A stretch of 64,000 bases of DNA from a virus. The stretch is taken from positions 1 to 64,000 of the IMG/VR virus record IMGVR_UViG_3300042731_007021, one strand, 5' to 3'. The position numbers and the translations under genes are program-made. Shown here piece after piece: positions 1 through 14,083 of this stretch. Numbering within the stretch: position 1 is the stretch's first letter; the number at the start of each line of letters is the position of its first letter. The notes beneath the pieces are model-generated. The model did no database searches, had not been told where the DNA came from, and worked only from the letters and a program-made list of their open reading frames with translations.

Positions 1-66
<66 letters not shown>

Positions 67-271
67 ACCATAGAAAAATCGCAGTCAATCCTCCACCTAC
101 CATTAGGATTCTTAGCCATCCACTAGTATATTTATAATAAAATTCAGTGTCGTTAACGAATGGCGTTGATGCTATAAAAAAGGCTTTTAATATTCTGTAT
201 AAAGTTTTCACCACTATCTCCAATTACTCATCGCCGGATGGAAATGCAACTGTCAACTCGGACGGCAGGCG

Positions 272-490: not shown

Positions 491-510
491 TTCCGTCTCC
501 CTTTTGCATC

Positions 511-564
511 AAATAACAATTGCTTCAAGCGACGACTCAGCTCGTCTTACGCTGAGCGTTATGC
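511..564 (+). mobile_element. attC-like recombination site B
   Basis: AAATAAC AATT GCTTCAAG CGACGA-ctcagc-TCGT CTTACGC TGAGC GTTATGC; same layout as classic short attC sites (TAAC AATT..TTCAAG...CTTA..AGC GTTA) with an extrahelical C. Confidence 0.8.
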
Positions 565-795
565 CGGGCCAATTAATTTAGTGTGGCGCGGCGGTTGTTC
601 GGCAGAGTATAAAAAACCGTCCTCGCCAAGCATCAACCCACCAGCCCCTCGCTTTGTAAATTCGCCGTGCCATTTTCCTATTTCCGGGTCACACTCAGAG
701 CAAAGCAACGGCTCGTCGTTACATTTTTTCCACCAGTACCCACACAAGGCTGTATTCTCAACATCCCCGCATTTTTCACATTTGAAAAGTGGCAT
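559..795 (-). CDS. small Cys-rich (CxxC...CxxC) hypothetical protein, cassette gene; start MPLFKCEKC
   Basis: ATG lies within the R'' box of site C and the stop within the R' box of site B; the ORF-track extension to 855 is translated attC sequence. Confidence 0.7.
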   Translation of the reverse strand: MPLFKCEKCGDVENTALCGYWWKKCNDEPLLCSECDPEIGKWHGEFTKRGAGGLMLGEDGFLYSAEQPPRHTKLIGPA

Positions 796-876
796 AACAA
801 CATGCTCCAGTTGCGACGGCCTTGCCCAGGCCTGTCGGGTTAAAATGTGCGCCACGCCTGAGCATGGCCGTTATAT
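792..876 (+). mobile_element. attC-like recombination site C
   Basis: GCATAAC AAC ATGCTCCAG ... CTGAGCAT GGCC GTTATAT; ATGCTC(C)AG pairs with CTGAGCAT leaving one extra C. Confidence 0.8.
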
Positions 877-1071
877 TTCCTTAATGCTGTCCACAGTTAT
901 AGCCCAAGGCCACCCGCGTCTACTGCCTGTTTCACCGAGCACCTTTTTAACCTTCGTTATAGCACCAGCTTTCGTTTCTGCTTTTATAGTCAGTTTTTCA
1001 GCTTCATCCCATCGCGGAAAGTAATATCCGGTGGGGTCTTTCTCTGTTGCTCTGATCGCAAATTCAAACAC
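871..1071 (-). CDS. hypothetical protein, cassette gene
   Basis: 66-aa ORF with GGAGGTG RBS; exactly fills the space between sites C and D. Confidence 0.75.
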   Translation of the reverse strand: MFEFAIRATEKDPTGYYFPRWDEAEKLTIKAETKAGAITKVKKVLGETGSRRGWPWAITVDSIKEI

Positions 1072-1087
1072 TCACCACCTCCCAAAA

Positions 1088-1145
1088 ATATAACAATGAA
1101 ATGCAATAGGTTCGCTGCGCTCCCGACTGATTTTTTCCGTTATAT
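1088..1145 (+). mobile_element. attC-like recombination site D
   Basis: ATATAAC AATG AAATGCA ...TTCGCTGCGCTC... CTGATTT TTTCC GTTATAT. Confidence 0.7.
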
Positions 1146-1382
1146 TTCAAAATCAGATTTTCGAAACCCGGCTTCTCGGAAGCCTGTAAACACACTGATG
1201 CATTGCGGGCAAGTAATTTTTTGCCCAGGAGGTGCTTTGACAGTTCCAAACGTACCGACATGAATGTACGGGTCATTTGCATCCAAACCGCACAGTGTGT
1301 CGTAATCAGTTGGGAAACAATTTATTGCATGCCAAATGACGCCATCTGATTCTCTGACTCCTATAACTCTGCTCATCCCCAC
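1140..1382 (-). CDS. small putative Zn-binding hypothetical protein (H..TLCG..ITCPQC)
   Basis: 80-aa ORF; stop within R' of site D. Confidence 0.7.
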   Translation of the reverse strand: MGMSRVIGVRESDGVIWHAINCFPTDYDTLCGLDANDPYIHVGTFGTVKAPPGQKITCPQCISVFTGFREAGFRKSDFEI

Positions 1383-1576
1383 AACTCCTTAGCTTTTTTA
1401 AGCGCTTTAATAAAGTTGTCGATGTCTTCTATGGTGCATATTGGGCAGTCTTCTCCCTCTACACCGACAATACCGACAGCCTTACCACGACGGACAATTA
1501 AATCACCTGAATCATCAAATCTGATGCCCTCAACCTCTTCGTTTACTTCTTCTCTGATGTCTATGATCATTTTCAT
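1373..1576 (-). CDS. hypothetical protein
   Basis: 67-aa ORF with GGAG RBS, coupled to the next gene. Confidence 0.7.
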   Translation of the reverse strand: MKMIIDIREEVNEEVEGIRFDDSGDLIVRRGKAVGIVGVEGEDCPICTIEDIDNFIKALKKAKELWG

Positions 1577-1598
1577 AATGCTCCGTCAACCTTAATCG

Positions 1599-1802
1599 TT
1601 ATGTGCTTTCCGCTTGAACTTCGGCGCGGGTTTTCACCAACCGGATAACATTCCTGTCCTCATCAAATTCGACCCTATCACCAAAGGCGTATTGATCACT
1701 CAGAAGGTGATTGTTTATTTCGGCCTGGTTTTCTGGCAAGTCTGGATACCGGTAGGCCCAGAATGATTCTCCGGGTATTTTTAAACGTATATTTGGGTCC
1801 AC
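1599..1802 (-). CDS. hypothetical protein, cassette-like gene
   Basis: AGGAG RBS; flanked by GTTATGT (1598) and GCCTAAC (1819). Confidence 0.7.
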   Translation of the reverse strand: MDPNIRLKIPGESFWAYRYPDLPENQAEINNHLLSDQYAFGDRVEFDEDRNVIRLVKTRAEVQAEST

Positions 1803-1818
1803 AGTATTAATCTCCTGC

Positions 1819-1924
1819 GCCTAACACGGCACACATTGACGCATTTTTACCTGGTATGTCATTCTATATCTCGCTAGTTGGCACGTTCCGCTGCGCTCTA
1901 CGCCGCACAGTTTTGATGTTCAGC
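1819..1924 (+). mobile_element. degenerate attC-like site F
   Basis: GCCTAAC ... CCGCTGCGCTC ... GTTCAGC; arms pair poorly. Confidence 0.4.
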
Positions 1925-2162
1925 GTCCACGCTTCGCTTGATATGCGTAGCATCCGAACGGTTCTCCGAGTGCCTCACTCATAGCCTTGCAGGTCGAACA
2001 CGGGCGAGTTGATACCGTGTGCATGTCTACCGATAAGACCTTTATGGCCTCAATAAGGGACGCTGAACCAGCCATTGAAGAGGAATTGCTCTCGTTGGCG
2101 TTTCGTTTAAAAGTGCAAATCGGGTCACATTCTTCACCACATTCAGGGCTACATTTACTCAT
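1920..2162 (-). CDS. Cys-rich hypothetical protein
   Basis: 80-aa ORF with GAGG RBS. Confidence 0.6.
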   Translation of the reverse strand: MSKCSPECGEECDPICTFKRNANESNSSSMAGSASLIEAIKVLSVDMHTVSTRPCSTCKAMSEALGEPFGCYAYQAKRGR

Positions 2163-2195
2163 TCCGCAATCCTCTTAATAGTGAACGTTATAGGG

Positions 2196-2495
2196 CTAAT
2201 CGGCGTATCTGGTAATCGCCCTATGTAATTCTTCCAGCCCAATGTCGGGGTTGTCATCAAGTAGTCGTTTTCGCATTTTCAGCGCATTCCGGTTAATCAA
2301 TCCATGCTCATAAGCGTCAATCGGCATCGCAATTCCGCGCTCTGTTCGTCCACTGCATACTGCCTGATCATAAGCCTCGGTTTCTTCATGGTACTGTTTA
2401 GCCAGTTCATATAATCGGCGGTCTTTTTCGGTAGGAGTGAAGTCTCCATATAACAAGGCGCTAAACTCGGACTCGTCTCTCTTCGCTGCGCTCAT
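2196..2495 (-). CDS. hypothetical protein; likely start MSAAKRDE inside attC site H
   Basis: GGAGAGGAACA-ATG at 2495, in frame with the track ORF. Confidence 0.65.
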   Translation of the reverse strand: MSAAKRDESEFSALLYGDFTPTEKDRRLYELAKQYHEETEAYDQAVCSGRTERGIAMPIDAYEHGLINRNALKMRKRLLDDNPDIGLEELHRAITRYAD

Positions 2496-2526
2496 TGTTC
2501 CTCTCCGGTTATGCCAAGCGTTATAT
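2448..2526 (+). mobile_element. attC-like recombination site H
   Basis: ATATAAC AAGG CGCTAAAC TCGGA...CTTCGCTGCGCTC...TCCG GTTATGC CAAGC GTTATAT. Confidence 0.75.
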
Positions 2527-2533
2527 TTAAAAA

Positions 2534-2815
2534 TCACACCCCTGTTCCTAACACAGCGTCAAAGCCTTCGGTCACGGCAGCTTTTACAAGGTCGTGCCCC
2601 TGCCCGTATTTGAAATAATCAGCCACCTGCTTGGTTAATTCCGTATGCACGATTTCAGTCACTTTCCCTTGCCAGTCATAGGACTCTATCACCTTCTCAA
2701 TCTCGACCTTCAGGACCTCCCCCATCTCGCTATTATGTGCACCAAGATGCGTCAAAATGGTGGACTTCATTTGTTCAACTTCTAGCCGTATGAGCGGCAT
2801 CGCTTCATGATTCAT
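2534..2815 (-). CDS. hypothetical protein
   Basis: 93-aa ORF with AGGAG RBS. Confidence 0.7.
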   Translation of the reverse strand: MNHEAMPLIRLEVEQMKSTILTHLGAHNSEMGEVLKVEIEKVIESYDWQGKVTEIVHTELTKQVADYFKYGQGHDLVKAAVTEGFDAVLGTGV

Positions 2816-2846
2816 TGTATTAATCTCCTGCGCGTTAACTCAAGCG

Positions 2847-3167
2847 CTAGTCAGCCCTCGGTCTCAGTTCGACTTCTTCAAACATCGACGTTCTGGCGAG
2901 TAACATAGCAGCAAGGTTCGCGACGTCCACCCAGTCCTCCGACTCTACGTTTTTAATGAGCCGGGTTTTTAAATCTGAATTCTCACATTGCGGAGTATTC
3001 CACCCGTTATACCCGTTTTCACGCTTCTCTTTTAATCGTTCTCGCATCTTATGTTCCGCAAAATCTACAAGTAGGCTATCTGCAACCTTGGGGTGGACGC
3101 TCGTTACAAAAGCTACCAGCAAAATATCGTCTGCTTTCTTTTTTGCTAACTCCAGCCTTTCAATCAT
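2847..3167 (-). CDS. conserved-type phage helical protein (GYNGW...C...DWVDVANLAAML), possibly MazG-like fold
   Basis: motif recognition only. Confidence 0.5.
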   Translation of the reverse strand: MIERLELAKKKADDILLVAFVTSVHPKVADSLLVDFAEHKMRERLKEKRENGYNGWNTPQCENSDLKTRLIKNVESEDWVDVANLAAMLLARTSMFEEVELRPRAD

Positions 3168-3203
3168 GTTCCTATCTCCTATTAAAATGGCTAATATACC
3201 TAT

Positions 3204-3455
3204 TCAATTGGCACCTTTCGGCCTGCCTGGTTCCAGAACCTCACATCGAATCAGCTTTTCAGCGTCCAGGGTACTTGGGTCGAACGCCACCTTGACCGAA
3301 GAGGTGGCCTTGGCCCCTGCCCTTGCGGCATAACTGTTAATGCCTTGCATGGCTATCCCTACTTCACCAGCTGGCACCGGGTAGTAAACCACAGTGCCAG
3401 CCGGCATGCGCAAAAAGTCGCCGACTGGGGGGTAGAATTGTGAAAATTTTGGCAT
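3204..3455 (-). CDS. hypothetical protein
   Basis: 83-aa ORF with AGGA RBS. Confidence 0.6.
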   Translation of the reverse strand: MPKFSQFYPPVGDFLRMPAGTVVYYPVPAGEVGIAMQGINSYAARAGAKATSSVKVAFDPSTLDAEKLIRCEVLEPGRPKGAN

Positions 3456-3490
3456 TGGATTTCCTGGTTAATTTAGGTTAATTGAAAAAT

Positions 3491-3892
3491 TCACCGCACC
3501 AACTTCACCGTCACCCGGCGAGAACCAAAAGTCGTCTTGAATATCTTCTTCAGATCGATCGGGGATAGGTATTTGCGCAGATCGGTGATACTGAACTTGG
3601 CCAGTTTATAGGCCAGGCCTTTTTCAACATCCTCCAGCATTTGGGCGGCAGTCGTAGTATTTTTTACTACGTTGGATTCAGCCTTCTTTCCGATGTTGAT
3701 CTCACATCCAGGAGCGCTCAGATTCGCCGATTCAAGCCTACCCAGTCCGCCTTTCTCAACATGTTCGACAATCAATTTGACGGCGGCGTTATAATCGGCG
3801 GTGATATGTTCAAGCTCAGTTGAAACTTTGTCTTTGGCGCTTTTCAATTCTGCAATTTCGTTCATTGCTGCGGTGTAACTCTTTACGGACAT
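3491..3892 (-). CDS. hypothetical protein with N-terminal coiled coil
   Basis: 133-aa ORF with GGAG RBS, directly downstream of a sigma70 promoter. Confidence 0.75.
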   Translation of the reverse strand: MSVKSYTAAMNEIAELKSAKDKVSTELEHITADYNAAVKLIVEHVEKGGLGRLESANLSAPGCEINIGKKAESNVVKNTTTAAQMLEDVEKGLAYKLAKFSITDLRKYLSPIDLKKIFKTTFGSRRVTVKLVR

Positions 3893-3925
3893 CTTTTTGT
3901 CTCCGGTTTGTTTATCTGAAATTGC

Positions 3926-3959
3926 AGTATAAAGATTGATGTATTATTTGTCAACAAGT
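3926..3959 (-). promoter_or_regulatory. sigma70-type promoter ACTTG-TTGACA-N17-TATACT
   Basis: near-consensus -35/-10 upstream of 3892. Confidence 0.75.
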
Positions 3960-4501
3960 TTATTCTTTCTGCTTCTTTTCGATACATGGTAGATTTTCTT
4001 CATCACTGCATCAGACATCTTAACGATATACACTTGCCACACGTGCGCCATTATCGGCAGGGAGTCTGCAGTCAGGCTTTTATTGGATCGGCGTGGCAAT
4101 ATTTTGTCAGCCTCGGCCAGGATAGGAAACTTTGCTTCATCAGGCTCAACATCTGGGGAGGCTCTCAGGTATGACTTTAATTGACTGTCGGGTATTGGAG
4201 TCTGGGGGAAGTTCCCTATAGCATCCGAGGCCTCCAATGCCATGACTGGCAACACCCGCACTACGAAATCTGACTTATGACGTATGCCGCGGCGCTTCAG
4301 AGGCTCTTGTAACTTGCTGGGCCGGGATTTACTAAACACCAGAAAAGCCATCACATCGTCACGATGCAGATTATTGTAGTCGTCTACTAAGGCATTCCAG
4401 TCGATGTCGGTGTTGACGTATTCACCAAAATCCTTAACCTTCAAGGCCTCCAGAATGTCTGTATAAAGTGGATGCTGTTTGGTTATGAATTTGAGGTTCA
4501 T
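3944..4501 (-). CDS. hypothetical protein
   Basis: 185-aa ORF overlapping its neighbour by ATGA. Confidence 0.75.
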   Translation of the reverse strand: MNLKFITKQHPLYTDILEALKVKDFGEYVNTDIDWNALVDDYNNLHRDDVMAFLVFSKSRPSKLQEPLKRRGIRHKSDFVVRVLPVMALEASDAIGNFPQTPIPDSQLKSYLRASPDVEPDEAKFPILAEADKILPRRSNKSLTADSLPIMAHVWQVYIVKMSDAVMKKIYHVSKRSRKNKLVDK

Positions 4502-4761
4502 TTAGCCTCCGAGTTGGATTCATTTTTAACCGCCCTCTCGTATTCCGACAACAAGTGTTCAAGTAACGTTTCTCCGCATCTTGGGGAGAAGAAAATCCTA
4601 TGGTCTTGCGGCATTCCACTGACGGTGAGGTCTCTTAATTTTTCAGGGCGATAGCTTTTCATTTCACCAGACTCTGACATTACTTGAAGTGGAAAATTAA
4701 ATCTGCTGTCTACCTCAACATACTCTCCGGCCAATGGCCCGCCAACGCATAAAACTTTCAT
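4498..4761 (-). CDS. hypothetical phage protein (VGGPLAG motif)
   Basis: 87-aa ORF, translationally coupled. Confidence 0.7.
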   Translation of the reverse strand: MKVLCVGGPLAGEYVEVDSRFNFPLQVMSESGEMKSYRPEKLRDLTVSGMPQDHRIFFSPRCGETLLEHLLSEYERAVKNESNSEAK

Positions 4762-5849
4762 CTCAAACTCAACTCCTCTTCAATAAATTCTTCATAAATA
4801 GTCTTGAAGTCTTCGTCCGTCGTAGCATCCGTGACCCTTGGGGACAAGTACAATATCTGCTCAGGAGTGAACCCTTTATACAACAGTTGGTCGGCGCGTT
4901 CAATTGGCATGATGGCCAGATTGTCTATCTCACACTCAAGATGCCACTGCTGCAAGGTTTTCATGACCACTGAGTTTTCAAATATATCGAATACTGGGAG
5001 GATCCACTCCGATATAAGTGATCCCCACTGGCGCAAAGACACCGACCGCATTTCCAACGGGGTGTTGGGCGCAAAGGGCGTACAGTCTTCTTCTGAATCT
5101 TCAGGTATGCTTTCAGACGACTTCTCTATGAACACCTTTTCTGAAAACCTTTGCAACTCCGGGATGGCGGCATCATTATATCCGTGCTTCAATAAATCGT
5201 TGGAGGTTATTTTCACTTTTTCAGACATAAAGGTGCCAGTCTGCTCTATTCTTACTATGCCCTCATCCTTGGGCTCTTCTCCCAGGTTTTTTCCGTTGTA
5301 TTCGGTGACGTTGTGATACCCAAAGTGGATAAATCTCCCCCTGACCGGTAGGTAAAGCAATTGAATTGTATCGGCATTGAACTGGAAGCTAGTCAGCATA
5401 CTAAGGCTTATCCGTTCTGAAACAAAGTCGACGCTATATTTCCTATGACCTATGTTATCAGTAGGAAGTGATTCCGCTATGGCGTCCTGACCAATGTCCA
5501 GATAATTGTGGTCATCACTAAAGTCCCTGTAATTAGGATCAACTTTAGACAACTTTGGCACAATAACATAATCCATTTTGTCCAGGTTCTGGTATTTCAT
5601 AGACAAAAACGGTGCCCCTGGACGAGGGGAGACCAGCCCCCTTGGCTGTTTGATATTATCATACAGGTCGGATGTGAATCTGCCATATCCAGGTTCCATA
5701 CCTTTAAGTTGCTGTCTCTCTATCATCTCGTACAAATCATCACCTATAACAACTATAGAAAGGTCTACCCAGTTTGGGTCGCATCGATGCGGATACTGCG
5801 TTATTAAGTTACGCCATTGCTTGTATAGAAGTTCAGAGTGTAGTTTCAT
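4758..5849 (-). CDS. hypothetical protein
   Basis: 363-aa ORF. Confidence 0.8.
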   Translation of the reverse strand: MKLHSELLYKQWRNLITQYPHRCDPNWVDLSIVVIGDDLYEMIERQQLKGMEPGYGRFTSDLYDNIKQPRGLVSPRPGAPFLSMKYQNLDKMDYVIVPKLSKVDPNYRDFSDDHNYLDIGQDAIAESLPTDNIGHRKYSVDFVSERISLSMLTSFQFNADTIQLLYLPVRGRFIHFGYHNVTEYNGKNLGEEPKDEGIVRIEQTGTFMSEKVKITSNDLLKHGYNDAAIPELQRFSEKVFIEKSSESIPEDSEEDCTPFAPNTPLEMRSVSLRQWGSLISEWILPVFDIFENSVVMKTLQQWHLECEIDNLAIMPIERADQLLYKGFTPEQILYLSPRVTDATTDEDFKTIYEEFIEEELSLR

Positions 5850-6558
5850 TTCCAGCTTTTCCCATAAACGGCAAATGCTTCAACACGTCATCAAATTTCA
5901 AAATCTTTTCAGCAGTAGCCGGGAAAAATTTTTCATCAACTTCTACTTTTTCTGTAATTCTGAAATCCCCCACCTTAATCGACACGCTTAATTCATATTT
6001 GTAAGGGGACATAGCCCTTTCTGTTCTGGTGCAGTAACATATTAATTCTGCATCATGAAGCAGGAATTCATATGCCACCCTGTTCTTTTCCCGGAGGTCC
6101 AACATAGCAGACATTATAAGATCCCTGGCGGGGCCGTTAAATAGTGGGCTTGAATACTCCAATGGCAGGCCGTATAACTGCGGTGAATTCCTAAGATGCC
6201 ATCGACAAAATGCATAGGCCGTTATCGGTTTAACGAAAAACGGAAACTTGCATTCAGGCTTCTCCCCTACTTCATTCATAATATAGTCTTGGTACTGAAT
6301 TTCATACAGGTCAGGGGCATCGTCTTCAGGATCCCTTGGCATAGAGCTGCGAAGATAACTCAACATGGATTTAAATTCATTCTTATATCCAGCCCCTTCA
6401 TGGACACGAATGAACGAGCATAAAGAACTCACATCAATCAATTTAAACTTTATGTCCACGTATATGGGGTTCAGCCCGGATGCTTCAAAGAAAGCCTCTG
6501 AGTCGTTTATACGGCTTCTTCTATTCGGATGGTCCCGGAGGTAATCTAGGGGGTTCAA
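5833..6558 (-). CDS. hypothetical protein
   Basis: 241-aa ORF in a tightly packed operon. Confidence 0.75.
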   Translation of the reverse strand: MNPLDYLRDHPNRRSRINDSEAFFEASGLNPIYVDIKFKLIDVSSLCSFIRVHEGAGYKNEFKSMLSYLRSSMPRDPEDDAPDLYEIQYQDYIMNEVGEKPECKFPFFVKPITAYAFCRWHLRNSPQLYGLPLEYSSPLFNGPARDLIMSAMLDLREKNRVAYEFLLHDAELICYCTRTERAMSPYKYELSVSIKVGDFRITEKVEVDEKFFPATAEKILKFDDVLKHLPFMGKAGNETTL

Positions 6559-6848
6559 TTTATCTTACCGCTCTCTGTTCCATGCAAAGCAGCCTGGCTA
6601 TCTCTCAGCCGCTTGCCCTGGATAGCGCCCGCCAACATTTCGATAAGGCCTCCGGTCACCATAGCAACATACCGGTTGCCGTCTTTATCTTTAAATTGGA
6701 TATCGACAGTTGGGTTGCCTTCCGCAGTACCCTTCCCGACGATACCAAATTCAGTAATTTCGGCGGCATTCCAACTCTCCAACTCATTGTAGTTTGGGGC
6801 TTCTTCCGGGCTGTCAAAAATCTTTATGTTTACTGCATTGGTGGACAT
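6555..6848 (-). CDS. hypothetical protein
   Basis: 97-aa ORF with GAGGA RBS. Confidence 0.7.
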   Translation of the reverse strand: MSTNAVNIKIFDSPEEAPNYNELESWNAAEITEFGIVGKGTAEGNPTVDIQFKDKDGNRYVAMVTGGLIEMLAGAIQGKRLRDSQAALHGTESGKIN

Positions 6849-6857
6849 CGTTTTTCC

Positions 6858-7250
6858 TCAAATTAAAATTAACTGGCGTGGCACGTCTCTATAATCCTCA
6901 AACATGTCACAGTTTTCAAACGGATGGTCTGGCCACCACGTATTGGACTTTTTCAAATTTTCCTCTTCAGTAATAACTTGCAGGTTCCACGGAACATGTA
7001 ATCCGCACACTATGTCGCTGCATATCGGAACAATGTGGTCCTGGTGAACCTGCTCACCGGCGTCTTTTCTACGCTTCCACTCATTACGAATCTCTTTGAA
7101 CCCTGGGTGTTCGGCGCACCAGTCAGGCCAGGCCGCATACAGTTTCTTATAATAGCGGATTGATCTCCTATAATGACTGTTGAGTGAGGAATCATTCTCA
7201 TCTTGTTTAGCCAGCCAGATAGGGTTCTGTTTCGATATTGGAGTCGCCAC
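6858..7250 (-). CDS. HNH-endonuclease-like protein
   Basis: HQDHIVPI...[23 protein letters not shown] motif. Confidence 0.8.
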
Positions 7251-7256
7251 AAGTAT

Positions 7257-7544
7257 TCATTTTTTCTCGAATTGTTTTCTGACTTCCTCTGCCTTGCCTT
7301 GGTTATCATTGGAATAGAATTCAGGCCTGAACTTTCTATACGGGTGATTTTTAGGTTTTCGTTTACCGGCTAAAGAGCCTGAGGGGGTGGCAGCCGCCAC
7401 CCTGGGAGAAACCCCTCGAACAATTCTCTGTCTGACCAATTCCGTCGACACCGTGCCGTGTCCTATACTGGCCAGTTCAACGTATGTCATGGCGTTCAGT
7501 TGCTCGTCAGTGTACTTGGATAGGCGTTTCTCAGCTGGGGTCAT
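7257..7544 (-). CDS. small basic, probably DNA-binding protein
   Basis: 95-aa ORF; RQRIVRGVSPRVAAATP resembles phage HTH-like motifs. Confidence 0.55.
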   Translation of the reverse strand: MTPAEKRLSKYTDEQLNAMTYVELASIGHGTVSTELVRQRIVRGVSPRVAAATPSGSLAGKRKPKNHPYRKFRPEFYSNDNQGKAEEVRKQFEKK

Positions 7545-7637
7545 TTTTCTTTGGCCTTAAAATTAAAAGGATGGCAATCCATTATTCTGTTCCTAGTTCC
7601 AGGCAGGGGAAATAGCCCCCTGCCATCGTCAACATAC

Positions 7638-8033
7638 TTACAAGCTGTTTCTCAGTTTCTTAAGGTCTTCCAACGACTTGCCTTTCAGGTCTTCGTCCTG
7701 TTTGTCCTGAATGATTTCGTCAATGCGGTTTTTAAACGCTTTGGTTTCAGCCGCCTTTTCTGCGCGTTCCTTGAACTCAAGACGCTTGGCTATAATGTAT
7801 TTAACCAAGTCCAATTTGTCTTTCAGTTCCTGGTCACCGTCGCTGGACGGCTCAACGAAGTCCTCTTCTCCGGCTTCCTTCAAGTTGGCACTGATTGTTT
7901 TAGCCACCGAATTAATAGAATACGCCCCCTTGAGCGGCATAGTCCACAAATCTTCGACGGACAGTGAGCCCTTGGAAGAAACGAAGCGAAACTTCTTCTT
8001 CGATGCGATTTCAAATAAATTGCGTTCTGACAT
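7638..8033 (-). CDS. conserved phage protein (NLFEIASKKKFRF..KG.LSVEDLW), partner of the 681-aa protein
   Basis: recognisable phage family; GGAG RBS. Confidence 0.75.
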   Translation of the reverse strand: MSERNLFEIASKKKFRFVSSKGSLSVEDLWTMPLKGAYSINSVAKTISANLKEAGEEDFVEPSSDGDQELKDKLDLVKYIIAKRLEFKERAEKAAETKAFKNRIDEIIQDKQDEDLKGKSLEDLKKLRNSL

Positions 8034-8049
8034 GGATTTTCTCCGTTGG

Positions 8050-10095
8050 TTAAAAGTTAATTTTCAAAGTCCGGTTAAAGCTCCCGCTTACCCGGCAGGT
8101 TACCGAATTGCGTTGGGTAGACGAAAACCCAATACCGCTCAGCTGATCGTCTGACATTTCAACGCGCATCTTGTTGCCAAGAATTTCAAACACCTTTCGA
8201 TGTTCATTGAGTTCAGGCTTCAGAAACTCATTGTAAAACCCTCTCGGCGCTTCCGGATTCCGGCAATTTTTCAACATGAAGAAATAGTGCTGGTTTCCGG
8301 TCTGCTTACCGCCCCAGAAATTGGGAGACAGTAACATCAACGACACCGGCTGGAAACGCTCCGTCTCAATACCCCAGACACTACGGGATGTTGAAGTGGA
8401 CGGCAGCGATTTAACAACCTCCATAGTTCCGTCAGCCTTCACTTCTAGTCCAATAACGTCTATAAATTCACCGTTCCTCACTGCCTTATCATAAGCAAAC
8501 TTCATAAGGTTGCCGTTAAATTCAAATTCCACTTCAAATCCTACATCTTTTGATTCCCGTTTCTGGTAGTTGTGGACCCCGATAGAGTAAATCCCAGCCG
8601 GAGGGCGGTTCTTCCATACAATGTTCTCCACTGCACGGTTACTGTAGTTAGTGAGGGTGTTGGCATTCATGTCCACATCCAGCCGCCCTCCAGAGAATCT
8701 CCCTGACTTGGTTGAATAGTAAATTTTTTCCTCTTTAGAGCCGGATCTATATACCGAATGCAGGTCCAGGTCATCATAGTTGAACCATGACAAAGACGCC
8801 CGCATATAGCCGTGAACGTCACCGCCTGCGGCTTTCACCCGCTCCCTGATACTGTCGGTCACATCGCCGTTATAGGCCCAGGAGAAGCCGTTATCCCATT
8901 GGAATAAGGAAGGTGCACCTGTCTCCGCGGGGGCTACCAGACTCATCAGGTTGCGCTCATGGCGGTTTTCTACCATAACTTCCATGGCAGTAACCTTAGG
9001 CAGTACGTTGGAAATGAAGTCTTCAATGCCAATCTCTTCCACTTTGTCCAGCTTCTGTGGCCGCTTCCCGGCTTCTTGCATCAACTCGTCAAAGCCGTCC
9101 ACTGCGATCGGCACATCCCGATCCACAAACAGCATATCGGTGGCGTCCAGGTCGGTGTAAGTTGCAAACCGGCGCGAGAGGGCCGACATAAGGCCCAAGG
9201 AAGCAACTTCCTGCTTGGCGTTTTCTATCATGCGCGGAGTGACCAAAGCACTGGGCCGTTTATAGTTGGCCGGGGCAGTCACTTTATCATAGCGCTTGAC
9301 AGCTTTCTCAAGGTCCATGCCTTCCGACAAATCTACCAACAAGGTGCCGATTGAAGAGTTGCGGATGTGGGAAACCGAAGAGTCTTCAATGCAATACTTC
9401 CATGCAAAGTTTTCCTGCTTCTTTTCATTGCTGTGAGAAGCGTTCCACAACAAATAGTAAGCGCTTTGCAGGCCCTTGAATGCAGCCAATTGTCTCTTGT
9501 ATTGATCTCCCCGATAAAGAGAATTTTGGCCAATCAAATCCAGCACGATATCAATGGCGTCACTTTCAATTTCCTCCAAAGCCCGTTTGAACACATTTTT
9601 TGCATTGAACGCTTTGGATTGCAGTGTCCCGATACGAGTGGCAGTCTTCACGAATCGTTCCGGAATATCCAGATGAAAGTGGCTCCACCGGATGTCCGAG
9701 TTGTGACTGTCAAAGTTATGATCGACGCCGACAGCTTTGAACTCACTCAATAAAATATTAGCGATAGGGAGCGCCTTGACATAGGCCGACAGACTGTCAG
9801 CAACGGCTTGATACGCAGGGTTGTTGATTCGAATATCCCAGATTGATACCAGGTTATAATCCTCGTCCAATGAAACGATGCCACCCGCCTGACGCACGAA
9901 TGCTTTACAGCAACTACAGTCGTGTTCCGTTCTCTCCCGAAAGATTTGGTTGGAGCCCTCAGGAAAGGCTCCCAGATACTTTTCATACCAGACTGTATCC
10001 CGGTCGGTATCGACAATAAACAACTGGTTTTCGTCCGATGCCATCTTCGAAAATTGCTGTTGCACTGCGGTTTTAAAGACTTCAAAAGTCATCAT
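8050..10095 (-). CDS. large conserved phage protein with N-terminal EHDCSCCK motif and YfaP/DUF2135-like C-terminal domain
   Basis: LSWFNYDDLDLH...GGRLDVDMN...VENIVW...YSIGVHNY. Confidence 0.75.
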   Translation of the reverse strand: MMTFEVFKTAVQQQFSKMASDENQLFIVDTDRDTVWYEKYLGAFPEGSNQIFRERTEHDCSCCKAFVRQAGGIVSLDEDYNLVSIWDIRINNPAYQAVADSLSAYVKALPIANILLSEFKAVGVDHNFDSHNSDIRWSHFHLDIPERFVKTATRIGTLQSKAFNAKNVFKRALEEIESDAIDIVLDLIGQNSLYRGDQYKRQLAAFKGLQSAYYLLWNASHSNEKKQENFAWKYCIEDSSVSHIRNSSIGTLLVDLSEGMDLEKAVKRYDKVTAPANYKRPSALVTPRMIENAKQEVASLGLMSALSRRFATYTDLDATDMLFVDRDVPIAVDGFDELMQEAGKRPQKLDKVEEIGIEDFISNVLPKVTAMEVMVENRHERNLMSLVAPAETGAPSLFQWDNGFSWAYNGDVTDSIRERVKAAGGDVHGYMRASLSWFNYDDLDLHSVYRSGSKEEKIYYSTKSGRFSGGRLDVDMNANTLTNYSNRAVENIVWKNRPPAGIYSIGVHNYQKRESKDVGFEVEFEFNGNLMKFAYDKAVRNGEFIDVIGLEVKADGTMEVVKSLPSTSTSRSVWGIETERFQPVSLMLLSPNFWGGKQTGNQHYFFMLKNCRNPEAPRGFYNEFLKPELNEHRKVFEILGNKMRVEMSDDQLSGIGFSSTQRNSVTCRVSGSFNRTLKINF

Positions 10096-10108
10096 ATTCT
10101 CCGGTCTT

Positions 10109-10262
10109 TCCAGTCTCTTGGACTGAAGGTTAAAAATTAGGTTTGGTATCCAGCCTCCACGCTGGCCGTCGCTTCAACGGTCTGGATACCCGAAGCCAGT
10201 TAAACTTGGCGCTGTTGCTAATCGTCTACCGATTGGCCGCTTCTAACGGCTGGATGTTACAT
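10109..10262 (-). ncRNA. candidate structured RNA / leader with several hairpins
   Basis: GGTATCCAG/CTGGATACC, GCTAATCG/CGATTGGC, ATCCAGCC/GGCTGGAT and smaller stems in an intergenic gap. Confidence 0.45.
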
Positions 10263-10300
10263 GGCTACCTCTTTTTATTGTGTGGTTATGCGGCTAGCGG

Positions 10301-10528
10301 TTATCCATTCATAGGAACAATATAGCTGAGGTTTCGACCCACCTTCTGTCGGACCCCAGGTTGTGCCACTGCCTTCTTTTCACCATGGATGGTCTGAGTG
10401 ACTATGTGGCCCATTGGAGAATACAAGGTTTTTCCTCTCAACATCACCTTCTCCGCGAATGCCTCACGAAGCAGATTGGCCCTGTACTTCTTGAATGATT
10501 CGTTGTGTTTTCTTGCTCTTGCTGCCAT
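10301..10528 (-). CDS. small basic hypothetical protein
   Basis: 75-aa ORF with AGGGG RBS right after the tRNA. Confidence 0.65.
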   Translation of the reverse strand: MAARARKHNESFKKYRANLLREAFAEKVMLRGKTLYSPMGHIVTQTIHGEKKAVAQPGVRQKVGRNLSYIVPMNG

Positions 10529-10549
10529 GGTTATACCCCTTGTTAAAGT

Positions 10550-10624
10550 TGGTAGCGAGAAAGGGAATCGAACCCCCGTCTTCCGGGCTATGGACCCGGT
10601 GCTCTACCACTAAGCTATCTCGCA
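10550..10624 (-). tRNA. tRNA-Met(CAT), initiator (fMet) type, CCA encoded
   Basis: TGCGAGA TA GCTT AGTGGTA GAGC A CCGGG TCCATAG CCCGG AAGAC GGGGG TTCGATT CCCTT TCTCGCT A CCA; 1:72 mismatch and three G-C pairs at the base of the anticodon stem. Confidence 0.93.
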
Positions 10625-10630
10625 TTAAAA

Positions 10631-10936
10631 TCAATCGTTAAGTTCCGGATGAGAGTCCTTCCACTCTTTAACCCCTCTACTCCAACGTTCAAGATGTTCG
10701 CTGAAGGTCTTTAAGGCTTCACTATCCGCCAAGGTATCCCCTGTAAAGATGGCGGCATCTACGGTGTCGCAGGCTTCGTCAAGCCAATCTGGCAATGACA
10801 TACTTACTTTACTCCTTTCAAAATTAATATAAGCTAAAACCCGCAGTTCAGCCTCTGCATAATCAATTTCTGGGAAGCTACACCTTCCCTCTACGACCAC
10901 TGTGGATTTTATTTTGTTTTCAGCTTCGTTTGCCAC
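10631..10936 (-). CDS. hypothetical protein with a PolA motif-A-like peptide (IDYAEAELRVLA)
   Basis: 101-aa ORF with AAGGA RBS. Confidence 0.6.
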   Translation of the reverse strand: MANEAENKIKSTVVVEGRCSFPEIDYAEAELRVLAYINFERSKVSMSLPDWLDEACDTVDAAIFTGDTLADSEALKTFSEHLERWSRGVKEWKDSHPELND

Positions 10937-10964
10937 TATTATTTCCTTTCAAATCTTAAAATGG

Positions 10965-10999
10965 ATATTACTGCATCAACTACCTTAATGTCAATAAGT
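10965..10999 (-). promoter_or_regulatory. sigma70-type promoter ACTTA-TTGACA-N18-TAATAT
   Basis: shares the phage promoter signature; upstream of the tRNA operon. Confidence 0.65.
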
Positions 11000-11014
11000 T
11001 ATTTTTAGGGGCGC

Positions 11015-11452
11015 TCAATTTCCCTTGTCACCTTCAAGCAAGCGTTGCCGTATGTCCATTAGCAACTTTCCTAACATATTTTTACCTTTCCCGTCACACA
11101 CGCCCCAGAAAGTATCCCCCCAGGTATTGCCTTCGATGAGTTCAACATCCCCTGTTCTCTTTAATTTTCTGGCTAAATAACTACCACAAGCAAATTTCTG
11201 CTCTAATAATTCTTGCATTACTGAAACTTTAATCTCGTCCCAATCTTCCCGGATACCTATTTCCCTGGAAAGTCTCTTTGATTGCCCAGGGGTGCAGCAT
11301 TGGAACTGAAACCTCAAGTTAGTGGGGACTTTAGCAGCCTGATAAGCGTTTTCCAGTGTGGGAAACAATTGGTCATGATAAACTATTTTTACTTTATAAA
11401 AGTTTGACAAAAACCTATTTTCTCCGCTGAATCTATCGATAGCTTTGGGCAT
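11015..11452 (-). CDS. NADAR (YbiA/DUF1768) family protein; likely start MPKAIDRF
   Basis: FLSNFY, ENAYQAAK, LEQKF, LIEGNTWGDTFWGV...GKNMLGKLLMDIR. Confidence 0.92.
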   Translation of the reverse strand: MPKAIDRFSGENRFLSNFYKVKIVYHDQLFPTLENAYQAAKVPTNLRFQFQCCTPGQSKRLSREIGIREDWDEIKVSVMQELLEQKFACGSYLARKLKRTGDVELIEGNTWGDTFWGVCDGKGKNMLGKLLMDIRQRLLEGDKGN

Positions 11453-11485
11453 CCAAATTTCTCCTATACACATATAATATTCAAC

Positions 11486-11836
11486 TTAAAACGGACACTC
11501 GTCTTCACCCCGCCTTGATTCCACCACCCCAATCTCATGGTGGAACTCAAACTCTTCCACCCTATCAGGGTCTGCGTGAATGCACGTATGATCAGCGTCC
11601 TCTATGGCCCCTTTATTGTGCGGCCAATCATTGCCCCGGCAAAAACACCCACGTCTACTGGACCGCTCTTTTTCCTTTTTGTTAACGCTTTTCAACGTGT
11701 CCCGACCACAGCCTGGGCATAGTGGCCTCTTGGCATAGTGGTCTATCGGCTGATTAAGGGCCAGCCTGGCCCCACAATTTCTTCTATCTGTGCAGCGGTA
11801 GTTAAGGGACATAAGCGCTGTACCCAGGTAATGCAA
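11486..11836 (-). CDS. Cys/His-rich putative Zn-binding protein
   Basis: C..C, CPGC, CFC...WPH motifs; start uncertain. Confidence 0.65.
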   Translation of the reverse strand: MHYLGTALMSLNYRCTDRRNCGARLALNQPIDHYAKRPLCPGCGRDTLKSVNKKEKERSSRRGCFCRGNDWPHNKGAIEDADHTCIHADPDRVEEFEFHHEIGVVESRRGEDECPF

Positions 11837-11885
11837 TGCTATGGATGTGTTTTTGCATATGAGCCGACTGGCGCATTAATGCCTG

Positions 11886-12221
11886 TTATCTAGCATTAAA
11901 GTCCGGTTTTTCCGGCCACACAAAAGGCATAATCCAATAATAATCTTGATCCGGCTCACCATCCATCCAAAACTCTATCACAGTGCCTTCCTCGCTGAAT
12001 AAAATATCGCCATCAAAATGTAAAATTTCAACTTCACTGGCTTTGGGGCTAGATATGTAATACATGCCGCCTTTAGTTAGGCTGTAATTTTTTGTCAACC
12101 TTGCCCATCCGCCATGCTGCGATAACAAGTCACTGTTGCAGGAACTCACTACGCTATCCATTAACCGCTCTATCTCGCCTTCGGCTATAGTTTCGTGGTC
12201 TTCCATTTTTACTTTAATCAT
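11886..12221 (-). CDS. hypothetical protein; stop within a GTTATCT core site
   Basis: 111-aa ORF with GAGGA RBS. Confidence 0.7.
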   Translation of the reverse strand: MIKVKMEDHETIAEGEIERLMDSVVSSCNSDLLSQHGGWARLTKNYSLTKGGMYYISSPKASEVEILHFDGDILFSEEGTVIEFWMDGEPDQDYYWIMPFVWPEKPDFNAR

Positions 12222-12388
12222 TCGCTAGTCCTCAAAGTTCAATCGTTGTATTGCTTAGCTGCTGCTGCTGGCAATAACGAGCCATCCATCTGAGGTCTTG
12301 CGACTCAGACGCTAGTAGTGGCCAGGTTGGCGTTCAAACCAAAACCCGAGGAATTTAATGCTTTGTTCTGCACCCATCAGTGCCTCCG

Positions 12389-12688
12389 TTATGCCGCAAG
12401 CCCGCGAGCGCGAAGCTCGAACCATATCGAGTGCATCGCCTGTACGGCTTCTGCGGATAGCTTGATCCTGGTCTCATGTCCGCTGTTCACAAAAATAAAG
12501 GCAAACGAATCGTCATCGGCGGGGAAAACCGAAATGCTGCGGCCTCCAGATAGTTCGCATTTAATGCCTTTGATTGGCTCATCAGGCATAGCAAGCGCAT
12601 CAACAGAGGAAGCGCTGTCGCTTTGCAATCCACAAGTACATTCAGTTTGAGTACATTGGGTTAAATCTCTTTGTTCACATTCTTTCAT
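12389..12688 (-). CDS. hypothetical protein; N-terminus overlaps a degenerate attC-like site
   Basis: stop within GTTATGC (12388); GGCATAGC AAGC GCATCAACAG at about 12585 is read as ...VDALAMP. Confidence 0.6.
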   Translation of the reverse strand: MKECEQRDLTQCTQTECTCGLQSDSASSVDALAMPDEPIKGIKCELSGGRSISVFPADDDSFAFIFVNSGHETRIKLSAEAVQAMHSIWFELRARGLAA

Positions 12689-12726
12689 TCCGCGCTCCTG
12701 TTGGACAACCTTTTAATATGACTGTT

Positions 12727-12756
12727 AGTCGCACACAGCCGAAACCGTGTGCGACT
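12727..12756 (-). terminator. hairpin downstream of the Gp49-family gene
   Basis: AGTCGCACAC / GTGTGCGACT 10-bp inverted repeat; no clear U-tract. Confidence 0.45.
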
Positions 12757-12761
12757 GTTGG

Positions 12762-13064
12762 TTACGCTGCTTCGTGCAGTTTCTGCTTCAGAGCGTAGCC
12801 CTCCAAGGCCCAGATTTTTTCTCTGGCATTGTTCCTGGCAATCTTGCGCCCCAGCTCGGCGTTGAAGTTCTCAGGGCTTGCGCAGGCGCTTTCTCCAGTC
12901 ACAGTGAAACCGTTCGCCAAGGTCAGGCAGCACACGGTAAGCTGACTGCCGGGGAATACGTGATAGTCCTCGCCAGCAATCACCTCATCCAGTCGCTCAG
13001 GAGTAACACGCGGCGCAGTCAGTCCTTTGTCCTGAATCTCTTTTTCAATTTCTTGCTCACTCAT
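12762..13064 (-). CDS. Gp49 family protein (N4 gp49 / Sf6 gp66), cassette gene
   Basis: APRVT...LTVCCLTLANGFTVTGESACASPENFNAELGRKIA...KIWALEGY. Confidence 0.9.
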   Translation of the reverse strand: MSEQEIEKEIQDKGLTAPRVTPERLDEVIAGEDYHVFPGSQLTVCCLTLANGFTVTGESACASPENFNAELGRKIARNNAREKIWALEGYALKQKLHEAA

Positions 13065-13080
13065 TTTTCAAAGTCTCAGC

Positions 13081-13167
13081 GGCTAACAGTAAATTCCACG
13101 GGACGTGGGATAGTCCGCGCTTCGCATCTGGCCGCATTCAGCGCGCCCGTGAATAAAAGTGTTAGTT
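13081..13167 (+). mobile_element. attC-like recombination site J
   Basis: GGCTAAC AGTA AATTC(C)ACGGG ... CCCGTGAAT AAAAGT GTTAGTT; extrahelical C. Confidence 0.82.
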
Positions 13168-13410
13168 TTCTTCAATCCATGCGGCACAAGTTTCTTCACC
13201 TTGCGGTACTTCTGTATACCCTAAATCCGCATGGCAGTAAGTTCCTTCACGCTGTATCAATTCTCTGAACTTCTTGTCACTCACCCCAAGCACAATAATT
13301 GTACATCTCGGGTCAGTAATACCAAGACCAATTACAGCATGAGCAATCTGTGCGGCCACTTTGCCCTCAGTCATTTTTAAGTTTTTTCTGTAAATCGCTT
13401 TTATTCTCAT
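13162..13410 (-). CDS. peptidyl-tRNA hydrolase PTH2-type protein (short), cassette gene
   Basis: LKMTEGKVAAQIAHA, IIVL, DLGYTEVPQGEETC motifs. Confidence 0.85.
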   Translation of the reverse strand: MRIKAIYRKNLKMTEGKVAAQIAHAVIGLGITDPRCTIIVLGVSDKKFRELIQREGTYCHADLGYTEVPQGEETCAAWIEEN

Positions 13411-13424
13411 AAATCACCATCAAA

Positions 13425-13484
13425 AATTAACAACGCCATTAAATCCGACTAGCTATCGCTCTCAGTTTATGGCGAGCGTTATAG
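13425..13484 (+). mobile_element. attC-like recombination site K
   Basis: AATTAAC AAC GCCAT(T)AAA ... TTTATGGC GAGC GTTATAG. Confidence 0.8.
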
Positions 13485-13688
13485 CGTATTCTGCTCTTTC
13501 AACTTTTGCAGATCAGCCATCAATTCCTCATTGTTCGCAATGCACTCAGCAGTGAAGCGGTAACGTGTCCAGTGCATAGGTGCATCGTCATCAATAATCT
13601 GGCACAGCACCCAGGCGATGCGGTCTGTCGTGTTCGCGGTTTCTTTGTTAAAAGGTTCAAACATTTCGATATCCTCAAAGTGCGCCAT
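13479..13688 (-). CDS. hypothetical protein, cassette gene; start MAHFEDIE
   Basis: ATG within R'' of site L, stop within R' of site K. Confidence 0.7.
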   Translation of the reverse strand: MAHFEDIEMFEPFNKETANTTDRIAWVLCQIIDDDAPMHWTRYRFTAECIANNEELMADLQKLKEQNTL

Positions 13689-13747
13689 AATACGGCGCTG
13701 TGGAGGGGAGCGCAAAAGACGCGCTCCCCTAAGCTAAAACGTTAATG
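13685..13747 (+). mobile_element. attC-like recombination site L (R'' reads TAAT instead of TAAC)
   Basis: CCATAAT ACGG CGCT GTGG AGGGGAGCGC aaaagac GCGCTCCCCT AAGC TAAAAC GTTAATG. Confidence 0.65.
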
Positions 13748-14083
13748 CCACCAGAGAAAAATCTCGGTATCTGGTGGCAACGCCTTCATGTATTCCATAA
13801 CGGCCCTGTTTTTCGGGCTGAGTTTATACTTAGCCATTGCATCAGCAATAAGTTTTGCGCGTGTCGAAGTAAGCCGGTCGCCATAATTATCTTTGTCGGT
13901 ATCTTCCAGCCCTTCATCGTCGTACCAATGCAGCTTACGGCCCTGTCTAAATTCAACGACACCGCAGTTTCTTATTGAATCCTGCATGTCATAGTCACGG
14001 TCTGTCAGCAGTCTCTCGTAAGCGAGTGGCAGGTTATCGTCTTTTACGAACGCATTAACCACTAAAGTTAAACTTACTCCCAT
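13742..14083 (-). CDS. hypothetical phage protein (D.YGD.LT...NRAVMEYMKALP...LWWH), cassette gene
   Basis: 113-aa ORF with GGAGGTG RBS; stop within R' of site L. Confidence 0.75.
   Translation of the reverse strand: MGVSLTLVVNAFVKDDNLPLAYERLLTDRDYDMQDSIRNCGVVEFRQGRKLHWYDDEGLEDTDKDNYGDRLTSTRAKLIADAMAKYKLSPKNRAVMEYMKALPPDTEIFLWWH

Follow-up and report, generated by a model that had tools for sequence, protein, structure and literature searches.

Two rows of single-gene, integron-type cassettes in a lytic-looking phage contig carry the probable footprint of circular-cassette insertion

Clusters of attC sites without an integrase (CALINs) have been reported in phages by Qi, Rajabal, Ghaly, Tetu and Gillings (2023, PMC9892861), and two sites of the TJE1 CALIN were assayed with IntI1 in that study. 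By the definition of Cury et al. (2016, PMC4889954), a CALIN has two or more attC sites on the same strand, lying within 4 kb, and no intI close by. The DNA analysed here, a stretch of 64,000 nucleotides that we call the window, comes from wetland metagenomes and looks like a contig of a lytic phage. As in the phage CALINs described by Qi et al. (2023, PMC9892861), attC-bounded single-gene cassettes were found in a virulent-type phage with no integrase among the window ORFs scanned. We built a covariance model, R2, on sites taken from IMG/VR phage contigs; its matches in TJE1 fall on the strand opposite the genes, which have the classical orientation, whereas in the window genes and matches share a strand. 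The window resembles classical arrays in its GTT/AAC cores, its R- and L-box anatomy and its G|TT scar (PMC4889954; Nivina et al. 2016, PMC5027507). Unlike classical arrays, it is without intI, attI and Pc, its genes lie on the attC bottom strand, and it carries phage-type genes, namely Phage_gp49_66 and members of four PHROG families. The classical arrays analysed for comparison were the Vibrio phage MK672802 integron, a class 1 array in MH445380 and a Methylotenera MAG integron. A further likeness is to promoter-early stem-loop (PeSL) gene shuffling in T4-type phages, in which small accessory genes bounded by repeated stem-loops undergo modular exchange; PeSLs are direct repeats that act through homologous recombination, and no gene-specific inverted repeat split at G|TT is expected of them.

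Very probably, the single-gene units described here are integron cassettes that were inserted as circles; they form two rows in the phage early region, one at about 272-2520 and the other at about 12389-13741. Each cassette would formerly have been a small circle with one folded attC. An integron-type tyrosine recombinase would cut the R' box of attC at G|TT and the circle would be joined into an attC that the phage already carried, leaving the G with the site body at one cassette end and TTxxxx at the other. Because of a cut at this position, all sites would be hybrids, and an R'' box would pair with the GTT box across the gene, not with the adjacent box. The features of the two rows are as follows, with box pairs given by the coordinates of the two boxes and the fraction of matching positions.

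149-279, plus strand: site m, leftmost and weakly attC-like; R' GTTATAT at 271, putative R'' in GTTAAC at about 152; folding no better than shuffles (z +1.6), no R2 match.
272-558, minus strand: cassette with ORF 272-490; box pair 271/509, 3/6; the TTA that directly follows the crossover G271|T272 supplies the stop codon on the complementary strand.
509-566, plus strand: attC site l; R'' AAATAAC at 511, R' GTTATGC at 558; its bottom strand is the minus strand, where R2 matches (17.3 bits, E 0.03 in 16 kb).
559-870, minus strand: cassette with ORF 559-798 (phrog_11861, E 1.2e-9); box pair 558/792, 8/8; start codon within R'', stop at the crossover.
790-878, plus strand: attC site k; R'' GCATAAC at 792, R' GTTATAT at 870; L boxes CATGCTC/GAGCATG; fold better than 200/200 shuffles (z -3.5), no R2 match.
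871-1139, minus strand: cassette with ORF 871-1071; box pair 870/1088, 9/9.
1086-1147, plus strand: attC site j; R'' ATATAAC at 1088, R' GTTATAT at 1139; weak end-to-end closure in the fold (z -0.4), no R2 match.
1140-1598, minus strand: two-ORF unit, ORFs 1140-1382 (phrog_15583) and 1373-1576; the terminal remnant is GTTATGT at 1598 only, with no recognisable attC body; no matching partner box (uncurated score 2).
1599-1918, minus strand: cassette with ORF 1599-1802 and site h (1817-1926); box pair 1598/1817, 4/6; folding of h no better than shuffles (z +1.15).
1919-2187, minus strand: cassette with ORF 1920-2162 and collapsed site g (2178-2195), in which AAC abuts GTT; 3/6, with an unusual GTTCA in common.
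2188-2520, minus strand: cassette with ORF 2196-2456 (phrog_27964, E 1.7e-12) and attC site f (2446-2528); box pair 2187/2446, 8/9; R2 match on the minus strand (33.9 bits, E 2.5e-6).
12270-12396, plus strand: site e, the left edge of the second row; R'' GGCAATAAC, R' GTTATGCC at 12388; end-to-end closure in the fold.
12389-12724, minus strand: cassette with ORF 12389-12589 and site d (12584-12732); box pair 12388/12585, 7/8; R'' core decayed to AGC.
12725-13161, minus strand: cassette with ORF 12762-13064 (Pfam Phage_gp49_66, E 1.2e-32) and attC site c (13079-13169); box pair 12724/13079, 8/9; R2 match on the minus strand (29 bits, E 4.1e-5).
13162-13478, minus strand: cassette with ORF 13162-13410 (short PTH2-like Pfam match, E 5.1e-7 over 23 residues) and attC site b (13423-13486); box pair 13161/13425, 8/9; end-to-end fold (z -2.1).
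13479-13741, minus strand: cassette with ORF 13479-13688 (or to 13715) and site a (13681-13749); box pair 13478/13681, 8/11; R'' core decayed to AAT, strong GC hairpin inside, fold z -5.4.

The preliminary description had listed seven of these box pairs; their plus-strand coordinates and letters were exact, its strand labels for R'' and R' fitted the polarity derived here, and its match counts were reproduced, namely 7/7 at 558/792 and at 870/1088 over the seven bases quoted, 6/7 at 13161/13425, and the values given above for the other four. Complementarity extended 8-9 bases from GTT and ended there. Transitions accounted for six of the seven mismatches across the quoted pairs, including, as had been stated, all three at 13478/13681; the lone transversion was at 2187/2446. 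Three pairs were added (1918/2180, 1598/1817 and 271/509) and these were the weakest, with 3-4 of six positions matching. No matching boxes were found for the unit 1140-1598 or for ORF 2534-2815. The outer boxes of the second row, R'' of site e and the R' at the far edge, matched at 8/9 positions, as expected if the row grew inside a single ancestral attC.

A curated test was carried out on the boxes of 13 sites, using the 10 gene-flanking pairs and 134 non-neighbour pairs as background. Gene-flanking pairs matched at 3.10/4, 3.90/5 and 4.60/6 variable positions, compared with 1.78, 2.03 and 2.28 (K = 4, 5 and 6) for non-neighbour pairs and 2.00, 2.33 and 2.42 for within-site pairs. The sum observed was reached by 9/200,000 permutations for K = 4 and by 0/200,000 for both K = 5 and K = 6; permuted pairings almost never equalled the true neighbours. 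For the same box, the cross-gene match exceeded the within-site match in eight of nine comparisons, with one tie (K = 6). Sites d and a have degenerate cores (GCT and ATT), and there the earlier list of pairs guided the choice of boxes. An uncurated search was unaffected by this: for each of 15 units, with array edges included, it took the best GTT/AAC pair from the two neighbouring intergenic regions. The p values were 0.0013 for K = 6 with exact cores, 0.017 when one core mismatch was allowed and 0.0021 for K = 5. These results confirmed that cross-gene box matching is real and excluded chance.

The same test was applied to arrays in which sites were set by the model and not by eye. In the Vibrio phage MK672802 integron, which has intIA, cross-gene pairs matched at 5.31/6 positions versus 3.07 within sites (13 pairs; 0/100,000 permutations). 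Arrays beside IntI in Methylotenera and Methylobacter MAGs gave 5.18 versus 3.38 (11 pairs; 0/50,000 permutations), IMG/VR arrays 4.06 versus 3.14 (16 pairs, p = 0.0004) and the L100 array 4.50 versus 3.57 (6 pairs, p = 0.006). The test was positive in all attC arrays tried. The window thus has both the cross-gene complementarity and the very scar seen in true integrons, and the earlier proposal of a footprint of circular-cassette integration at G/TT is supported. Since bona fide integrons give the same result, the pattern is the textbook scar of chimeric attC sites and introduces no new principle; its mechanism has long been known, with 'chimeric attC/attC sites' described by Cury et al. (2016, PMC4889954), and the footprint alone is therefore no novelty. 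Its unusual aspect is the location in a phage together with the reversed genes.

Eleven sites of 54-150 bases were curated, each combining R and L boxes and AAC...GTT cores with a variable centre; both cores were kept in nine of them, with one mutated core each in d and a, and two further sites were collapsed or remnant. R2, run on 16 kb with E values up to 10 accepted, matched three of the roughly 11 curated sites (f, c and l), and a narrower model, R1, matched site f alone, weakly. R2 also recognised 21 canonical attC sites (14 of the Vibrio integron, five of class 1 and two of TJE1) and, at 40-60 bits, sites next to IntI genes, 13 of them beside genes with TIGR02249 scores of 472-496 bits. 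By this sequence measure, f, c and l qualify as attC sites. Sites f and l, both called by the model, lie 1.9 kb apart on the minus strand, the arrangement of a CALIN; the second row has one model-called site and four curated ones. No PF00589 match was found in the 87 window ORFs scanned, and thus no adjacent intI of the kind that marks a complete integron.

R2 matches lay opposite the annotated cassette genes in 21/21 canonical sites, and in another array, L173, 7/7 matches lay opposite the eight inter-site ORFs of at least 77 aa, all of which are on the other strand. In the window all three matches were on the coding (minus) strand, where the ORFs are backed by Pfam and PHROG matches. AAC|G was present in 17/21 and T|GTT in 20/21 canonical bottom strands, and in 8/11 and 9/11, respectively, of the window minus strands. 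Since the attC top strand is the plus strand and the genes are all on the minus strand, the cargo is antisense to the textbook layout, in which the cassette gene lies on the attC top strand and is expressed from Pc. Such cargo would be read by phage transcription in the opposite direction. No paper on this layout was found in the literature searched, and Supplementary Table S1 of Qi et al., with 14 more CALINs, may hold cases. As to which attC body goes with which gene, comparisons of loci point both ways: L013 and L017 differ by a break at xxxx|AAC, which fits the antisense layout, and L005 and L013 diverge directly after GTTA, which fits the classical one.

Because no tyrosine recombinase was found among the 87 window ORFs scanned, the enzyme was probably a host IntI acting in trans. 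The same scar could have been left by another enzyme, either a phage protein of a family new to us or an Xer-like one, using attC-like hairpins, in which case the likeness to integrons would reflect functional convergence or distant kinship. The lack of IntI in the window, together with the finding that PF00589 exceeded its cut-off in 0/8 array-bearing IMG/VR contigs, two of them rated 100% complete, would suit that explanation, as would the reversed gene polarity, which sets these apart from ordinary bacterial cassettes. However, the model built from phage sites scores well beside true IntI genes and also recognises attC sites of class 1 and Vibrio integrons, both the GTT/AAC core and the G|TT scar are of integron type, and IntI1 recombines phage-borne attC sites (Qi et al., PMC9892861). 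We therefore regard another enzyme as improbable.

Folding was assessed with and without a constraint, the earlier suggestion having been to restore each site's own R' remainder and refold. When the R core was forced to pair, restoration lowered the summed energy from -92.4 to -110.8 kcal/mol on the minus strand and from -86.0 to -107.4 kcal/mol on the plus strand, and 0/20,000 permuted pairings were as good (downstream-body model); without the constraint the signal was weak and ranks were mixed. In free folding, at most 9/200 shuffles folded as well at three of the 11 sites, and z was positive at three sites. An alternative is that the inverted repeats are kept for a present function, such as pairing of mRNA ends (processing or stability) or terminator or attenuator hairpins. 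Co-transcription of the genes on the strand carrying the stable bottom-strand fold, the strong GC hairpin in site a, and a local hairpin of the gp49-like family that overlaps the variable part of the box by the stop codon, in the window and five other loci, are in keeping with this view. Against it, the pattern is identical in true integrons, as a recognised by-product of their recombination; the boxes are 230-340 bases apart and merely 8-9 bases long; and the mutated cores and collapsed sites indicate neglect rather than selection. There is no T-run, and only one of 21 terminator-like matches in 65-16000 fell in a site, the total being within that of shuffles (15.9, sd 4.0), in line with the earlier judgement that these are not simple terminators. 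A present function is accordingly very unlikely. Chance or composition is the weakest explanation, with next to no probability: GTTAT and ATAAC are frequent here, partly because TAA stops and ATG starts fall inside the boxes, GTTA(T/G) is common to most boxes and CGTTAT is enriched in the first 4 kb (10/22 occurrences), yet the permutation tests preserved box composition and the signal is located beyond GTTA.

To return to insertion as circles, the events appear to be old, given the mutated cores, the collapse or loss of two sites and the predominance of transitions among the mismatches. Two metagenome runs contain the stretch with no variant or joint seen, and hence no sign of present-day mobility, although contigs hide rare variants. 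The gp49-like cassette gene recurred in eight of 80 related viral loci and three of 71 bacterial-bin loci; in five loci (L005, L008, L017, L026 and L100) it had its own complementary pair, with box letters that differed by locus. A tentative possibility, and one we do not favour outright, is that the lytic phages of Pseudomonadota in wetlands and fresh water have in common a private pool of mirror-image integron-type cassettes, gathered in rows inside lone ancestral attC sites by host IntI in trans. In such a cassette the gene would lie on the attC bottom strand and take its stop codon from the TTA at the crossover.

As a diagnostic, the footprint indicates that about eleven small phage genes arrived singly, each in a circular cassette. 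Combined with the strand finding, it suggests that phages carry a class of cassettes whose genes are antisense relative to the usual integron arrangement; surveys of integrons that take the classical orientation for granted would annotate these wrongly. Were rows of this kind loaded by host integrases, phages would collect accessory genes, possibly counter-defence genes, by way of integrons. If the private pool exists, its cassettes would be silent in a bacterial integron yet read by phage transcription, and phages would run a parallel gene-exchange network on bacterial integron machinery.

The DNA analysed here is that of a phage. The following features were located in it:

32652-34385, large terminase, gpA type
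43964-47416, tape-measure protein
10553-10624, minus strand, one tRNA

A further 57 ORFs included those for a tail tube, a prohead protease, the small chain of ribonucleotide reductase and an amidase, among other families; leftwards from ~29 kb the genes are small and lie on the minus strand. An Rfam search of the window returned nothing beyond the tRNA, and megablast of positions 1-20000 against phages gave no matches. The 604-aa end protein and the terminase had no relatives in IMG/VR, and the search for their relatives recovered two short, distant loci in JGI metagenomes, which were set aside. Bases 65-10000 were present in two wetland-metagenome runs from two studies (shares of 1.00 and 0.96). 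When the contigs of both runs were aligned to 65-16000, there were no joints and no differences outside a repeat at ~15.6-15.8 kb; because they are identical in this way, these contigs are silent either way on present mobility. Both begin at base 65, so that the left array lies where the assembly ends, perhaps at a terminus of the genome. Window positions 1-64 consist solely of A, and the contigs carry approximately 25 other letters before base 65.

Several other features of this region were recorded. ORF 15500-16237, on the minus strand, contains in its frame a periodic GC-rich repeat (15540-15840), at which the contigs of both runs break and one contig has a 2-base deletion. Among sigma-70-like promoter matches in this region, the best two, both intergenic and oriented along the genes, were at 3926-3954 (11/12) and 10965-10994 (10/12) of the minus strand; the total match count was not above that of shuffled sequence. 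A minus-strand element at 14534-14679, in which a GC-rich hairpin precedes a T-run, resembles an intrinsic terminator, although it was absent from the list of the consensus scan, and a lone GCATAAC box follows it, just upstream of ORF 14165-14533.

The preliminary description had listed seven R''/R' box pairs across genes and had read them as the footprint of circular-cassette integration at G/TT. The genes form two cassette rows (~272-2520 and 12389-13741, the latter being array 2). All seven pairs were located at the positions listed, with the same match counts. Read along the genes, on the minus strand, the intergenic sites start with xxxxAAC, often containing a TAA stop codon, and end with GTTxxxx. 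Thirteen sites were curated, which defined ten gene-flanking pairs, three of them additional to that list. At the variable positions beyond the invariant core, flanking pairs matched at 4.60 of 6, compared to 2.28 for 134 non-neighbour pairs; within-site matches, which had been described as poorer, reached 2.42 of 6. Permuted partners did not score as well as true neighbours, as none of 200,000 permutations reached the observed sum (K=5 or K=6). Since the curated box choice was partly guided by the earlier list, an uncurated search also was carried out. For 15 units, including the array edges, it took the best GTT/AAC pair from the intergenic regions on either side (p = 0.0013, 0.017 and 0.0021 for three settings). 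Cross-gene pairing extended for 8-9 bases and then ended. The strict RYYYAAC/GTTRRRY pattern found no sites in the window, because the boxes are of the GTTAT type, and self-comparison of the arrays revealed only a single 17-base repeat. Two unrelated ORFs, 1599-1802 and 2534-2815, are preceded by the same 17-base leader (1804-1820 and 2817-2833), which carries a GGAG ribosome site and in both cases comes directly after a GTTA box.

Circularisation and refolding in silico, the check originally proposed, favoured the true pairings when the AAC/GTT core was forced to pair, which is what recombination requires; free (unconstrained MFE) refolding, in contrast, was noisy because local hairpins dominate. 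In the core-forced folds the reconstituted sites summed to -110.8 kcal/mol on the minus strand and -107.4 kcal/mol on the plus strand, compared to -92.4 and -86.0 kcal/mol for the integrated sites. No permuted pairing in 20,000 equalled the true pairings, and an alternative assignment of site bodies, also core-forced, gave p values of 0.001 or less.

One cassette gene, ORF 12762-13064, encodes a Phage_gp49_66 protein (E 1.2e-32) with more than 597 relatives in IMG/VR; ORFs 2196-2456 and 559-798 had no relatives there. In several of the best 80 IMG/VR loci the gp49-like gene lies between clean sites and has its own complementary box pair. Its closest relatives in bacterial bins (76-80% identity) were from Gammaproteobacteria, Nitrosomonadales, Gallionella, Competibacter and Ferrigenium. 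Two loci with gp49-like genes on contigs from bacterial bins were as follows:

L100, 29-2916 of a 31-kb contig assigned to a Methylobacter MAG: very clean array of seven sites, one of whose cassettes is the gp49-like gene
L173, Methylotenera MAG contig, 2188-7176: complete classical integron, IntI of 472 bits and seven attC sites on the IntI strand

Every site of L100 is on the strand of the gene, with perfect 7-mers in four of six neighbour pairs. On the L173 contig a 262-aa ORF and the gp49-like gene, both in the opposite orientation, lie 1.8 kb past the last attC site; this gp49-like gene was therefore dropped as a cassette. In the window, a hairpin of 8-9 bp lies between the gp49-like stop codon and the AAC box (12733-12760). 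The variable part of this box forms the 3' arm of the hairpin, so the box has two alternative ways to pair, within the hairpin or with its counterpart on the far side of the gene. The hairpin was seen in six loci (L005, L008, L012, L013, L017 and L026), its structure conserved and its letters different.

Folding alone was not convincing as evidence of attC identity: only 3 of 11 sites had folds that nine or fewer of 200 shuffles could equal, and z-scores were positive at 3 of the 11. Better evidence came from the relatives. A covariance model, R1, was built from four clean sites flanking gp49-like relatives, and a second, R2, from the 24 matches of R1; the R2 seed included one site each from Vibrio and the window, both of which R1 had found with neither in its own seed. 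With filters off, even the Vibrio match of R1 was lost; R1 was therefore considered too narrow and was replaced by R2. In the window R2 matched sites f (2446-2528, 33.9 bits), c (13079-13169, 29.0 bits) and l (509-566, 17.3 bits), and no further sites. Across 80 IMG/VR loci it found 26 sites in nine loci, 25 of them on the strand of the gene. It also found 14 sites in the complete integron of Vibrio phage MK672802, five in a class 1 array and, in Methylotenera and Methylobacter MAGs, 13 beside IntI genes of 472-496 bits, and none in Polaribacter phage P12002L. Two sites were matched in the CALIN (a cluster of attC sites lacking an integron integrase) of Tetrasphaera phage TJE1. Qi et al. 2023 (PMC9892861) report 17 CALINs from 10,705 phage genomes; five attC sites of phages were shown to be active with IntI1, and two attC sites of the TJE1 CALIN were assayed with this enzyme.

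The footprint test was then applied to model-defined sites as controls. Cross-gene matches exceeded within-site matches in MK672802 (5.31 vs 3.07; 13 pairs, 0/100,000 permutations), in arrays beside IntI (5.18 vs 3.38; 11 pairs, 0/50,000), in the IMG/VR arrays (4.06 vs 3.14; 16 pairs, p = 0.0004) and in the IntI-less array L100 (4.50 vs 3.57; 6 pairs, p = 0.006). Since bona fide integrons give the same result, and 'chimeric attC/attC sites' are described in a passage of Cury et al. (PMC4889954), the inference of circular-cassette integration was right and already established; the footprint is ordinary for integrons and is not itself new.

No PF00589 match was found among the 87 window ORFs scanned, nor one above cut-off in eight array-bearing IMG/VR contigs, two of them rated complete; one of the eight had a fragment that scored below threshold, 17 kb away from the array. 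Methylotenera and Methylobacter bins have a true IntI, and the phage-derived model gives their attC sites 40-60 bits. On these grounds the likeliest agent would be a host IntI acting in trans.

The arrays show decay: two cores are mutated, one site has collapsed to AAC/GTT, one site is lost, and 6 of 7 mismatches in the pairs first described are transitions. At window 2178-2195 and at ~1826-1850 of the IMG/VR contig L012 the attC body is gone and an AAC box abuts, or nearly abuts, a GTT box; in L012 this collapsed site adjoins the gp49-like gene. The outermost boxes of array 2, 12270-12278 (GGCAATAAC) and 13741-13749 (GTTAATGCC), are complementary at 8 of 9 positions, as if its four cassettes had grown inside one ancestral attC; this is only a hint, because ~6% of random box pairs match as well.

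The unusual feature of these arrays is their polarity. According to Nivina et al. (PMC5027507), the extra-helical bases lie on the arm facing the bottom-strand AAC, and the bottom strand has more G:T pairs and a loop rich in purines. R2, which derives from the coding strand of the phage cassettes, matched the strand opposite the annotated cassette genes at 21 of 21 canonical sites. In the Methylotenera integron, seven sites were on the intI strand and all eight inter-site ORFs of at least 77 aa on the other. In the window, however, all three R2 matches were on the minus strand, that of the ORFs with Pfam or PHROG support. The bases next to the core agreed: G follows AAC in 17/21 canonical bottom strands and 8/11 window minus strands, and T precedes GTT in 20/21 and 9/11, respectively. 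The plus strand is thus the attC top strand, as it had been labelled, and the cassette genes are antisense to it. In 8 of 11 cassettes the TTA that directly follows the crossover supplies the stop codon, read as its complement. With regard to which attC body travels with the gene, homology between L013 and L017 breaks between xxxx and AAC, as the antisense layout predicts, and divergence between L005 and L013 begins directly after GTTA, which fits the classical layout. Comparing interior identity between the sites on the two sides of gp49 favoured neither assignment. Longest-ORF strand calls in GC-rich IMG/VR arrays were divided 8 vs 6. A literature search, covering main texts and passages of the SCI defence preprint, found no publication that describes rows of antisense cassettes in phages. 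These results identify the object as a phage CALIN of an antisense variant.
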